Position numbers: made by a program
Shown here: positions 38,664-41,600 of the stretch, piece after piece
Numbering within the stretch: position 1 is the first letter of the stretch
How the letters are laid out: every line of letters starts with the position of its first letter
Assembly (NCBI RefSeq): GCF_058153355.1
Contig: NZ_CM177019.1
Reading direction: 5' to 3' (one strand)
Length of the DNA: 64,000 nucleotides

Positions 38664-41600
38664 TAATGATGTGGCGTATGCTGATAAGACGCGTCAGCGT
38701 CGCATCAGTCAACCGGCTTGGGCGTTAGATGTCGGATGCGGCGTGACCGCCTTATCCGACCTATGGGGTGGAGCACTTCACAGCGGTGTAGGCCTGATAA
38801 GACGCGCCAGCGTCGCATCAGTCAACTGGCTTGGGCGTTAGATGTCGGATGCGGCGTGACCGCCTTATCCGACCTACGGGGTGGAGCACTTCACAGCGGT
38901 GTAGGCCTGATAAGACGCGCCAGCGTCGCATCAGGCAACCGGCTCGGGCATTAGATGTCGGATGCGGCGTGACCGCCTTATCCGACCTACGGGGTGGAGC
39001 ACTTCACAGCGGTGTAGGCCTGATAAGACGCGCCAGCGTCGCATCAGGCAACCGGCTTGGGCGTTAGATGTCGGATGCGGCGTGACCGCCTTATCCGACC
39101 TACGGGGTGCCACACTTCACGGCAGTTTAGCGGACTACCGCGTTGTCAATTTTCTCTTCCGCCTTCCAGATGCGGTATTTCACATCTACATTGTCTGGCG
39201 TATACACCACGATCGGCAGCTTGCTGTTGTAACGCAGCATTCCAGCATCGCCCAGATACGCGGTGACAAATTTCTTCTCTTTCTTGCCATCCGGGCAGGC
39301 CATCATCGTGGAAACCGGCGAGCTAACTTTATCAAAGACGTAATAATCATAGCCCCAGCCTTCCAGCGTTTTGCTTTCCAGCTTCCCGCCGAGACGATGC
39401 AAATTGCAATCGACTTCCAGCGTCTGACCGATTAACAGTTCTACTTTCAGGGTAGATTCATCTTCTTGCGGGGTTAACTGAATCACCTGGCGCTTCATGC
39501 CTTTTTCAGCTTGTGGATAAGGCGCGATTTTTTCCAGTGGCTGGACGCTCTCTGCCGCCCAGGCGGAAGTGGTGGCGAAAGCGGCAAACAATACTGCAGG
39601 TAGAATGGTCTTCATTTTTTTGCTTTCCTTCTTCATTTATAGGTTTTCACCGATGATGTCGCTGAAGGTTAACATATTCATCAGATTTATTAATTTGCTT
39701 TATGAATAACTTAAAGAACATTCAGACAATTTTACCTGCTCTTTTAGTGTTAAATTCTGACGAGAGAACAAACCAGTAGAAATATCTCTGGTGAATTAAT
39801 CGCTATATAAATATGTTTATAACCATTTGAAATGTGAGCAAAAGCCCGTTTTTGCCACGCTTCCCGCCACTCTTTTGATCCTGCTACAGGTTTTACCTCG
39901 ATCGGGGTATGCATCTTTGACACATCCTTTAATATCTTAGCGGCTATAAAAATGGCTTATTAATTATGCGGTTTATTTGGTCGCTCTCAATTTTCAGAGC
40001 GCGTTAATGATGGAAGGTCAATGTGAAGATTGATGCATCCCGTCGGGGCATACTCACTGGTCGCTGGCGCAAAGCCAGTAACGGTATCCGTCCGCCCTGG
40101 TCCGGTGATGAATCTCATTTTCTGACCCATTGCACCCGCTGTGACGCCTGTATTAATGCTTGTGAAAACAACATTCTGCAACGCGGCGCGGGGGGCTATC
40201 CGAGCGTTAATTTCAAAAATAACGAGTGCAGCTTCTGTTATGCCTGCGCGCAAGCTTGCCCCGAATCGCTATTTTCTCCGCGCCACACCAGGGCCTGGGA
40301 TTTGCAGTTCACCATTGGGGACGCGTGCCTGGCGTATCAGTCAGTTGAATGCCGTCGCTGTCAGGATAGCTGTGAGCCAATGGCAATTATCTTTCGCCCG
40401 ACGCTCTCCGGGATCTACCAGCCGCAACTTAATAGCCAACTTTGCAACGGATGTGGAGCATGTGCAGCCAGCTGTCCGGTATCAGCCATAACTGCGGAGT
40501 ATCTCCATGCACACTAACTGGCAAGTTTGCAGCCTGGTCGTGCAGGCCAAAAGCGAACGAATTTCAGACATCAGCACCCAACTGAACGCCTTTCCCGGCT
40601 GTGAAGTCGCTGTCAGCGACGCGCCGAGCGGTCAGTTGATTGTGGTGGTGGAAGCAGAAGACAGCGAAACGCTGATCCAAACCATTGAGTCAGTACGCAA
40701 CGTAGAGGGCGTGCTGGCGGTGTCGCTGGTTTATCACCAGCAGGAAGAGCAAGGTGAGGAAACACCATGAAACTCAGTCGTCGTAGCTTTATGAAAGCTA
40801 ACGCCGTTGCGGCCGCTGCGGCGGCTGCCGGTCTCAGCGTGCCGGGCGTTGCCCGCGCCGTTGTTGGTCAGCAGGAAGCCATTAAATGGGATAAAGCACC
40901 ATGCCGTTTCTGCGGTACTGGTTGTGGCGTTCTGGTCGGAACGCAGCAGGGGCGTGTGGTGGCCTGTCAGGGCGACCCGGACGCACCGGTTAACCGTGGC
41001 CTGAACTGCATTAAGGGCTATTTCCTGCCCAAAATCATGTACGGTAAAGACCGTTTGACGCAGCCGCTTCTGCGTATGAAAAACGGTAAATATGACAAAG
41101 AAGGCGAGTTCACCCCAATCACCTGGGATCAAGCCTTCGATGTGATGGAAGAAAAATTCAAAACTGCCCTGAAAGAAAAAGGGCCGGAATCGATCGGTAT
41201 GTTCGGTTCTGGTCAGTGGACTATCTGGGAAGGTTATGCCGCGTCCAAGCTGTTCAAAGCGGGCTTCCGTTCGAACAACATCGACCCGAACGCGCGTCAC
41301 TGTATGGCGTCGGCGGTAGTTGGCTTTATGCGTACCTTTGGTATGGATGAGCCGATGGGCTGCTATGACGACATCGAACAGGCTGACGCGTTTGTGCTGT
41401 GGGGCGCTAACATGGCGGAGATGCACCCGATTCTCTGGTCGCGCATCACCAACCGTCGTCTCTCTAACCAGAACGTCACCGTGGCGGTGCTTTCTACCTA
41501 CCAGCATCGTAGCTTCGAGCTGGCGGATAACGGCATCATCTTTACGCCACAGTCTGACCTGGTGATCCTGAACTACATCGCCAACTATATCATTCAAAAC

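Follow-up and report, generated by a model that had tools for sequence, protein, structure and literature searches.

A four-unit REP array between mqo and eco: a known Escherichia coli repeat of probable BIME-2 type

In the 64,000-nucleotide stretch of contig NZ_CM177019.1 analysed here (the window), the convergent genes mqo and eco are separated by a 460-bp spacer in which a 14-nt leader precedes three units of 113 bp and a last one of 107 bp (Table 1). Tandem Repeats Finder placed a repeat with a period of 113 and 3.9 copies at 38681-39120 (96% matches, no indels, score 810), and a repeat search returned three in-register 224-nt copies spaced by exactly 113, confirming the four tandem 113-bp units of the original prediction. 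The unit starts given there (38683, 38796, 38909 and 39022) are in the same register with an offset of 2 nt, tandem repeats having no fixed phase. Within each unit, an inverted z2-type REP is joined through a 20-nt linker to a y-type REP, after which comes a linker of 23 nt; the two palindromes lie in opposite orientations in all four units, as had also been proposed. The last unit differs from the others in its 3' linker, which directly adjoins the eco stop. The first REP stem begins 12 nt past the mqo stop, and 27 nt separate the eco stop from the final y REP stem. A 2015 paper by Liang, Rudd and Deutscher reportedly deals with REPs located within 15 nt of stop codons.

Table 1. Coordinates of the features at the mqo-eco locus, as positions in the window.
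Feature	Position	Strand	Details
mqo (malate:quinone oxidoreductase)	37020-38666	+	548-aa ORF; RefSeq name at matching loci "mqo: malate dehydrogenase (quinone)"
mqo stop TAA	38664-38666	+	upstream convergent gene
Leader, 14 nt	38667-38680		TGATGTGGCGTATG; from dissection against 9 other loci
Unit 1	38681-38793		degenerate z2 iREP 38679-38710, 20-nt linker, y REP 38731-38760 plus CTAT, 23-nt linker
Unit 2	38794-38906		z2 iREP 38792-38823, linker, y REP 38844-38873, CTAC 38874-38877, linker
Unit 3	38907-39019		z2 iREP 38905-38936, linker, y REP 38957-38986, CTAC, linker
Unit 4 (107 nt)	39020-39126		z2 iREP 39018-39049, linker, y REP 39070-39099, CTAC, diverged terminal linker GGGGTGCCACACTTCACGGCAGT
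Exact 11-nt natural IS621 target at z2 tail	38788-38798, 38901-38911, 39014-39024	-	ATCAGGCCTAC; sequence from PMC11208160
y-tail site	38867-38877, 38980-38990, 39093-39103	+	ATCCGACCTAC; equals left guide of an IS621 variant
eco stop	39127-39129	-	downstream convergent gene
eco (ecotin)	39127-39636	-	169-aa ORF; RefSeq name "eco: serine protease inhibitor ecotin"

BIME-2 elements are defined by y and z2 REPs in alternating orientation joined by short linkers (PMC3333891). Units 3 and 4 match the z2 consensus GCCTGATGCGACGCTGGCGCGTCTTATCAGGCCTAC, as quoted in PMC11208160, at 36 of 36 positions on the minus strand with the flanking GTAG counted; unit 2 carries one mismatch, and unit 1 has a degenerate outer stem. 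The y-type sequence GTCGGATGCGGCGTGACCGCCTTATCCGAC followed by CTAC was found in all four units (the unit 1 tail being listed as CTAT), and its geometry is that of the canonical y REP, with a 7+2+4 stem, a mismatch bubble and a 4-nt loop, from which it differs in a compensated stem pair and in its loop bases. On the plus strand, GTAG precedes z2 and CTAC trails y in every full unit. The arrangement is tandem and variable, with 3.9 copies here, 1-7 across strains and linkers of 20 and 23 nt, and the K-12 orthologue of the array is catalogued as BIME-2, which together bear out the BIME label given to the array at the outset. BIME-1 (RIB/RIP) resembles the array in having an inverted REP pair in an intergenic 3' region, but it is single-copy and combines z1 with a long L linker containing an IHF site, whereas the window array is tandem, has z2 and short linkers, and lacks the IHF consensus WATCAANNNNTTR on both strands of the spacer; BIME-1 was thus ruled out. 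The two linkers are unlike those of REP325 and may not be of the canonical S, s, l or r type, in which case the locus would formally count as an "atypical BIME". The array is an already-known E. coli repeat, real but ordinary, and the eco-mqo array of the window very probably represents the Escherichia BIME-2, here with four units, an assessment that covers the best explanation as a whole, including the roles in gyrase binding, RNA and copy number discussed below.

The closest known counterpart is the K-12 eco-mqo BIME-2 (MG1655 2304394-2305107), which shares with the window its locus, the 113-bp unit, the z2 and y REPs, the linkers and the terminal unit. It differs in having six units instead of four and GTAACC in the y loops of units 1-4, where all four window units have GTGACC; in addition, the window is without 28 nt of the leader hairpin and its flanks are only 96-98% identical to those of K-12. 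The K-12 RefSeq record NC_000913.3 lists no repeat feature in the eco-mqo spacer. REP325 (yjdM-yjdN), the model BIME-2 and the source of naRNA1-6, has the same tandem z2-linker-y-linker order and highly similar palindromes, but its period is 100 bp and its linkers 13 and 17 nt, its y stem reads GCCGG...CCGGC instead of GTCGG...CCGAC (a compensated pair), and it lies between tandem rather than convergent genes. REPIN/RAYT systems, in which REP doublets are mobilised by the Y1 transposase TnpA-REP, share with the window the inverted doublets, the GTAG/CTAC tetranucleotides and the stem mismatch required for TnpA-REP binding; whereas those doublets disperse, the window array has expanded locally and in tandem at a fixed locus. 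RRS post-replication-gap elements (222-bp repeats about 650 kb from dif), described in a paper that mentions BIME-2, are located at lysO and dusC and were set aside.

By comparison of the available units, the array palindromes were shown to be conserved as predicted hairpins. Across 36 distinct units, 96.6% of the cells in the REP stems are paired, against 23-41% in register-shifted controls, the y stem shows compensatory changes, and the fold z-scores are -4.6 and -6.5. The REP325-derived covariance model of naRNA4/CssrE (Rfam RF02564, gathering score 59.5 bits) recognises the array on the minus strand, with 65.1 bits for unit 2 (38791-38874), 75.3 for unit 3 (38904-38987) and 73.9 for unit 4 (39017-39100), while unit 1, at 58.1 bits, falls slightly under the gathering score. 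These matches raise the question of whether the units encode naRNA4/CssrE-type, nucleoid-associated small RNAs that bind HU and condense the chromosome, all the more as a nucleoid role has been proposed for REP325 units and homologous REPs might share it (PMC4550694). However, the match reflects only the common y and z2 palindromes, the linker having a 7-nt insertion relative to the model, and a promoter scan found no promoter-like site for such an RNA in the spacer. Moreover, a preprint co-authored by S. Adhya, the senior author of the naRNA4 paper, reports no measurable nucleoid compaction by REP325 and naRNA4 and no REP-REP contacts in Hi-C (10.64898/2026.03.23.713779). We consider an naRNA function of the array highly improbable.

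Five plus-strand and three minus-strand ORFs of at least 30 aa overlap across the array. Those of 61-157 aa span it on both strands, and the annotation of a single genome, UMNK88, places a "hypothetical protein" here, yet it is almost inconceivable that they encode real small or repeat proteins. The period of 113 is not a multiple of 3 (it leaves a remainder of 2), so each unit is read in a different frame from the one before; the ORFs match no Pfam family, the REP palindromes account for the entire array sequence, and ORF content varies among strains because the unit number does. The ORFs had been dismissed as artefacts from the start, and annotators should not treat those across 38656-39435 as genes.

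Copy number, which the original prediction proposed to compare across related strains, is not invariant. A survey of 5,421 complete E. coli genomes gave a ladder of one to seven units, the single unit being commonest, and genomes with 1,200 nt of flanks 100% identical to K-12, laboratory K-12 derivatives among them, carry three, four, five or six units. Spacer lengths in the census were 146-149, 262, 374, 490, 601-603, 714-716 and 829 bp. Extra units are dispensable, since 35 of the 60 genomes in the census sample have only one, and unit number may be selectively neutral. Some differences between assemblies could also stem from collapse of the repeat during assembly. The array is present at the same locus in E. 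whittamii and Escherichia sp. E1V33, the only matches in an exact-pattern scan of one genome per species, in which misses are uninformative, even for the E. coli representative. The near-identity of the copies had been taken as a sign of recent expansion. This agrees with the dynamics at the population level, but for the window allele it is only partly backed because each unit has one to three private substitutions; Hamming distances with the single-unit strain WP2-W18 were discarded, as a 1-nt deletion makes them spurious.

Units are probably gained and lost in whole 113-bp steps, either through homologous recombination between misaligned units or through slippage during replication. TnpA-REP, the REP-associated transposase, for which cleavage at CC/T and strand exchange have been described (PMC3333891), would cut in the CTAC tail and may assist in this process. 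Microhomology variants are present among the dissected loci, and alleles off the ladder would arise by rare microhomology events. The leader varies as well. In the 9 other loci dissected it is 42-44 nt long and contains a perfect 16-bp hairpin, ACGCCACATCCGGCAT-GGT-ATGCCGGATGTGGCGT; aligned to strain 2017-02-2CC, the window leader is a remnant from which 28 nt between GATGTG direct repeats have been deleted. Only 2 of 5,426 genomes have this 14-nt leader, the 28-nt leader hairpin being present in nearly all other strains.

We then consider the array as a target. It had been predicted that the two REP-seeking elements found elsewhere in the window might insert here, and for the IS110-family element IS621 this was supported. 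IS621 is known to target REPs, and the natural target (ATCAGGCCTAC or ATCGGGCCTAC, CT core) is present as three exact minus-strand copies at the z2 tails, the only occurrences of ATCAGGCCTAC in the 64-kb window, which match the guide of the window's own IS621. Among 5,426 genomes, at least 30 have an IS621-family element inside this array; the locus is split in 48, about 18 of these without an IS621 explanation. For the group II intron no such insertion was seen: when genomes were searched with a three-part junction query, none had the intron's 3' end beside either array linker. Relative to the IS621 system, the array is a target and not a mobile element, and with the y tail ATCCGACCTAC it offers a further kind of target, which a guide variant uses. 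Where IS621 carries the published guide (ATCGGGCCT/GCGTAG), it inserts at the z2 tails on the minus strand. IS621 occupies the exact ATCAGGCCTAC position of this array in strains 2017-02-2CC, D7, E110019 and E189. A second lineage, about 96.5% identical, differs in a cluster of positions within the target-binding loop (11 of 33; LTG ATCCGACCT, RTG GCGCGGTAG) and inserts at the y tails on the plus strand; strains 23CRST025 and GPEC1292 have the variant with the ATCCGACCTAC guide in the y REP of this array. A third left-guide allele, ATCCGGCCT, lies at a different locus, in a canonical y tail that it matches exactly. Insertions in other genomes show that the IS621 bridge RNA reads these same CC/TAC tails. 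It is tempting to speculate that two IS621 lineages, each programmed differently, use the array as a natural landing site, that IS621 has been naturally retargeted between REP classes in E. coli, and that BIME-2 unit number sets the sites available to each lineage, a proposal on which we are evenly divided.

The K-12 orthologue also provides the basis for a role in gyrase binding. Table DS3 of Sutormin et al. (2019; PMC6379681) lists "BIMEs2 2308874-2309528, 654 bp, eco>-<mqo" with 11 Cfx (ciprofloxacin), 7 RifCfx, 2 Micro and 5 Oxo Topo-Seq cleavage sites in K-12/W3110, together with the remark "Espeli, Boccard 1997: 6 cuts"; in the Topo-Seq study, y REPs were cleaved more often than z2 and the signal survived rifampicin. 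Espeli and Boccard (1997) examined gyrase cleavage at this element in vivo. By analogy with the K-12 orthologue, the y REPs in the DNA of the window strain are likely to be strong, transcription-independent gyrase cleavage and binding sites, about one per unit. Because the array has four units, about four gyrase sites are predicted, placed where convergent transcription of mqo and eco would accumulate positive supercoils.

At the RNA level, REP325 and genome-wide data suggest that the REP hairpins lie within the 3' UTRs of both mqo and eco. No run of T or A in the spacer exceeds 2 nt, arguing against an intrinsic (Rho-independent) terminator, and a promoter/terminator scan found no terminator-like or promoter-like sites there. 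Since the spacer is without a U-tract terminator, the likeliest role of the hairpins would be that of a two-way barrier, combining partial Rho-dependent termination with a block to 3'-to-5' exonucleases. REP325 acts both as a partial Rho-dependent terminator and as a stabiliser of mRNA, and where REPs lie between convergent genes, expression of both tends to be higher; as a counterpoint, mRNA half-lives across the genome are no longer for REP-associated genes than for others, the effects being context-dependent (preprint 10.64898/2026.03.23.713779).

Alternatively, the array may be a selfish or neutral repeat, made of non-autonomous REP doublets maintained by the REP-associated transposase, with a drifting copy number, no benefit to mqo, eco or the chromosome, and gyrase and hairpin effects as by-products. 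The predominance of single units and a range of 1-7 with no visible constraint fit this explanation, as do the differing unit numbers between identical flanks, even in laboratory K-12 derivatives, the loss of the leader hairpin, the tolerated IS621 insertions and the ability of TnpA-REP to cleave and recombine BIMEs in vitro (PMC3333891). In contrast, at least one unit is retained in 20 of 20 dissected loci, including those of E. whittamii and Escherichia sp. E1V33, all informative census spacers are at least 146 bp, and the stems have stayed paired through compensatory changes. Furthermore, the K-12 locus ranks among the BIME-2s most heavily cleaved by gyrase, independently of transcription (PMC6379681), and deleting REP325 alters expression and growth (preprint 10.64898/2026.03.23.713779). 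On balance, we find a purely selfish or neutral array unlikely, if far from negligible, and favour a BIME-2 with gyrase and transcript-end roles.

The eco-mqo BIME-2 was recognised as a gyrase cleavage cluster in the 1990s, and copy-number variation of BIME-2s between strains is already in the literature. Where strains differ in the length of this spacer, the cause is gain or loss of units and not misassembly of unique sequence, and the array is a predictable IS621 insertion hotspot when such genomes are read or engineered. It also offers a natural series of one to seven units in near-identical backgrounds, suited to testing how gyrase loading and two-way termination depend on REP number. If the array does serve two IS621 lineages, the quickly changing BIME-2 unit number would fix the count of landing sites for each of them.

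The spacer between the convergent genes mqo and eco contains a real BIME-2 array that was already known. Tandem Repeats Finder reported a single array with a period of 113, 3.9 copies, 96% matches, no indels and a score of 810; a repeat search of the window recovered three in-register 224-nt copies spaced by exactly 113 nt, and alignment of the four units gave a mean column identity of 96%. A 113-bp tandem array, as stated in the original prediction, was thus confirmed far beyond chance, with unit starts in the same register but shifted by 2 nt. RefSeq annotation of matching loci identified the flanking ORFs as mqo and eco, with yojI further upstream and yojO-napFDA downstream. 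The spacer of 460 bp is made up of the leader, three 113-bp units and a final unit of 107 nt. Read on the plus strand, each unit consists of GTAG and the z2 palindrome GCCTGATAAGACGCGCCAGCGTCGCATCAGGC, a 20-nt linker (AACCGGCTTGGGCGTTAGAT), the y palindrome GTCGGATGCGGCGTGACCGCCTTATCCGAC followed by CTAC, and a 23-nt linker (GGGGTGGAGCACTTCACAGCGGT), and so carries the two inverted REPs that had been proposed. G+C content is 61% in the spacer versus 51% in the window. The spacer contains no run of T or A longer than two and no IHF consensus, and a site scan found no promoter-like or terminator-like sites in it. ORFs within the array, which had been called artefactual, were rejected as genes: 113 mod 3 = 2, their content varies with unit number, and no Pfam family was found for them.

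Coordinates of features in the window and in fetched loci (L numbers, fetched loci; H numbers, matched genomes)
Feature	Sequence	Coordinates	Strand	Remarks
mqo	window	end at 38666		548-aa ORF
Leader	window	38667-38680		14 nt (42-44 nt elsewhere)
BIME-2 array	window	38681-39120
eco	window	end at 39127	minus	169-aa ORF
IS621	window	52293-53572	minus	IS110 family; 326-aa transposase
Group II intron, copy 1	window	19359-21718	plus	2,360 bp; interrupts atoC
Group II intron, copy 2	window	60722-63081	plus	2,360 bp; downstream of yejK
ORF	window	23874-26723		949 aa
Second REP doublet	window	26836-26912		downstream of the 949-aa ORF
IS621-family copy	L010	4245-5523
Truncated IS110-family element	L023 (E200086)	1625-2953		at y REP downstream of flhA

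Inverted y and z2 REPs in tandem copies with short linkers define BIME-2 in Ton-Hoang et al. (PMC3333891). Units 3 and 4 have a z2 whose minus-strand sequence agrees at 36 of 36 positions with one of three reference REPs in Durrant et al. (PMC11208160). Decisive evidence came from Table DS3 of Sutormin et al. 2019 (PMC6379681), excerpts of which list 'BIMEs2 2308874-2309528, 654 bp, eco>-<mqo' with gyrase cleavage sites under ciprofloxacin (11), rifampicin plus ciprofloxacin (7), microcin B17 (2) and oxolinic acid (5), and the annotation 'Espeli, Boccard 1997: 6 cuts'; most BIME-2s in these excerpts have zero cleavage sites. The array was therefore already known and experimentally characterized at the orthologous locus, which has six units in MG1655, and its description as a BIME was correct both in its y and z2 layout and in the cataloguing of its K-12 orthologue as BIME-2. 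According to the text of the same paper, gyrase cuts y REPs more often than z2, and rifampicin raises rather than lowers the signal.

The Rfam model naRNA4 matches the array on the minus strand, with units 2-4 scoring 65-75 bits and unit 1 scoring 58 bits (gathering score 59.5), and its alignment requires a 7-nt insertion in the linker. The source of this model is the y-z2 unit of REP325, the yjdM-yjdN array of MG1655, which shares the layout of the mqo-eco array but has its own period of 100 bp and different linkers. A reading of the units as naRNA4-type nucleoid RNA genes, for which the shared palindromes are the sole basis, is contradicted by a 2026 preprint (10.64898/2026.03.23.713779), which speaks against a nucleoid role for naRNA4. 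The second REP doublet of the window, a single BIME with a canonical y REP and no array, is likewise hit by the naRNA4 model, with 84 and 63 bits on the two strands.

Folding gave z-scores of -4.6 and -6.5, one per strand, both far better than shuffled sequence. In a set of 36 distinct units from 18 eco-mqo loci (16 other genomes and the window) and from REP325, 96.6% of cells pair as in the two proposed hairpins versus 23-41% with a shifted register, and two pairs of the y stem show compensatory changes.

We then compared unit number across 5,426 complete E. coli genomes, using only the two 600-nt flanks as query. Flank matches were obtained in 5,421 genomes, with both flanks in one place in 5,373; spacer length was taken as the span minus 1,200 in an evenly spaced sample of 60 genomes, and dissection of fetched loci bore out the whole-unit length steps.

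Spacer lengths and unit numbers in the evenly spaced sample
Spacer (bp)	Units	Genomes (of 60)
146-149	1	35
262	2	2
374	3	1
490	4	4
601-603	5	4
714-716	6	10
829	7	1
649 or 861 (off-ladder)	not assigned	2
Split locus		1

In the 60 top-ranked genomes all 1,200 flank bases are 100% identical to K-12, and these carry six units in 45 cases, five in 13 (DH5alpha among them), four in one and three in one. Changes in unit number are therefore faster than point mutation, although some assemblies may collapse repeats. Laboratory derivatives of K-12 also differ (six units in MG1655 (L003), C600 and J53, five in DH5alpha (H279), three in MC1061 (L001)), either because the array changed while the strains were in laboratory use or because assemblies collapsed the repeats. 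E. whittamii (2.5 units, 91% inter-unit identity) and Escherichia sp. E1V33 (3 units) have the array at this locus too, which makes it older than E. coli. Off-ladder alleles point to microhomology events. In YZ22PE165 (L008), where units 3-6 have a 121-bp period, the terminal unit and 7-8 nt from around the eco stop (TTAGCGG) were duplicated at AGCGG microhomology and then amplified four-fold; in ACN002 (L009), the leader arm is fused to a y REP head. In the main alternative view, the array would be selfish or neutral DNA, with drift in the number of its units. Single-unit alleles predominate, which speaks for this view as regards the additional units; against it, for the whole element, stand the maintained stems and the persistence of one or more units throughout the genus.

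The best match of the window to any of the complete genomes is 98.2% over 11.6 kb (27000-38600). Its mqo and eco flanks are 92-94% identical to E. whittamii and Escherichia sp. E1V33 and nearer to E. coli than to either, and on these sequence comparisons the window likely represents a somewhat divergent, poorly sampled E. coli lineage. Its short leader results from a 28-nt deletion between GATGTG direct repeats, which removes a perfect 16-bp hairpin after the mqo stop; the first nine other loci examined all have this hairpin, as do nearly all other strains. Only two of the 5,426 genomes, strain 48 and CFSAN018748, have the same junction, with three units in one and one in the other. Per 90 nt, the window units differ by a mean of 3.2 substitutions among themselves, 1.8 from EC42405 units and 4.6 from K-12 units. 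All four have a GTGACC loop, a pattern compatible with amplification of a single type of unit; each also has private changes, so the four-unit state is not demonstrably very recent. Of the proposed recent expansion, change in copy number thus held (1-7 units, even with identical flanks), but its recency for the window allele found only partial support.

The original prediction also regarded the array as a potential target for two REP-seeking elements. One is IS621: downstream of narP, the window has a copy inserted in a short z-type REP between CTTATCAGGCCT and ACGCGG, with a target-binding loop (ATCGGGCCT...GCGTAG) equal to the published guide. The natural IS621 target, as given in Durrant et al. 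(PMC11208160), is ATCAGGCCTAC; the 64-kb window has this 11-mer at three places, all inside the mqo-eco array. In 23CRST025 and GPEC1292 the y REP of unit 2 contains IS621, and in 28 further genomes the right end of IS621 is joined to the array's specific linker. In all four of these that were checked, the element sits in the eco-mqo spacer, at a z2 tail and on the minus strand; their arrays total 3 or 4 units, and two IS subtypes are represented. The four-unit array of 2017-02-2CC differs from the window's by about 17 substitutions and the leader, and its IS621 from the window's at 5 of 1,280 positions. Insertion in the array explains about 30 of the 48 split-locus genomes, through at least three independent events. 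The array is therefore a target of IS621 in at least 30 genomes.

Comparison of the IS621-family copies of the window, L010 and L016-L025 revealed three or more alleles of the left guide within such arrays and near them: ATCGGGCCT/GCGTAG in the window, 2017-02-2CC, D7 and E110019, ATCCGACCT/GCGGTAG in 23CRST025 and C9, and ATCCGGCCT in E200086, with 2018-05-2CC combining ATCCGACCT on the left with a right guide of wild type. Between the window copy and that of 23CRST025, 11 of 33 loop positions differ; of the 192 nt of non-coding sequence 5' to the transposase ATG, the other 159 nt are identical. Variant guides are found at matching y-type REP tails, exactly so in three of four cases; as counter-cases, the wild-type-guide copies A8 and NN5 lie at y-type tails with 1-2 mismatches. 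These alignments suggest that the bridge RNA has been naturally retargeted from one REP class to another, with an imperfect match of guide and site. The natural-target survey of Durrant et al. (PMC11208160) covers exact IS621 copies only. In E200086, an IS3-family fragment and a group II intron ltrA directly follow the truncated IS110 element, forming a mobile-element nest at a REP site.

The second element is a group II intron, present in two identical copies with Rfam D1-D4-7 and domain V/VI matches and a 580-aa RT-maturase with an HNH domain. Copy 1 leaves a 404-aa atoC ORF in which the initial ~50 positions of the receiver-domain profile are missing; copy 2 directly follows a y-type REP tail (between gccttatctggcctacaa and GTGCG). 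The 5' exons have only TCTGGC in common, at positions -12 to -7. A junction query of complete E. coli genomes found the intron joined to eco-mqo array linkers in none, and array targeting was thus borne out for IS621 only.

Altogether, a three-part account of the array is best supported. The y REPs would serve as DNA-level gyrase sites, as shown for K-12 and expected by analogy in the window strain. Units may be gained and lost by misaligned recombination or slippage, possibly with help from the REP-associated transposase TnpA-REP, whose cleavage site (PMC3333891) lies between CC and T in CTAC. At the RNA level, hairpins in the 3' UTR of mqo as well as in that of eco would act as partial Rho-dependent terminators and exonuclease blocks, by analogy with REP325 and genome-wide data in the 2026 preprint (10.64898/2026.03.23.713779), and such a two-way role would fit the absence of any U-tract terminator in the spacer.
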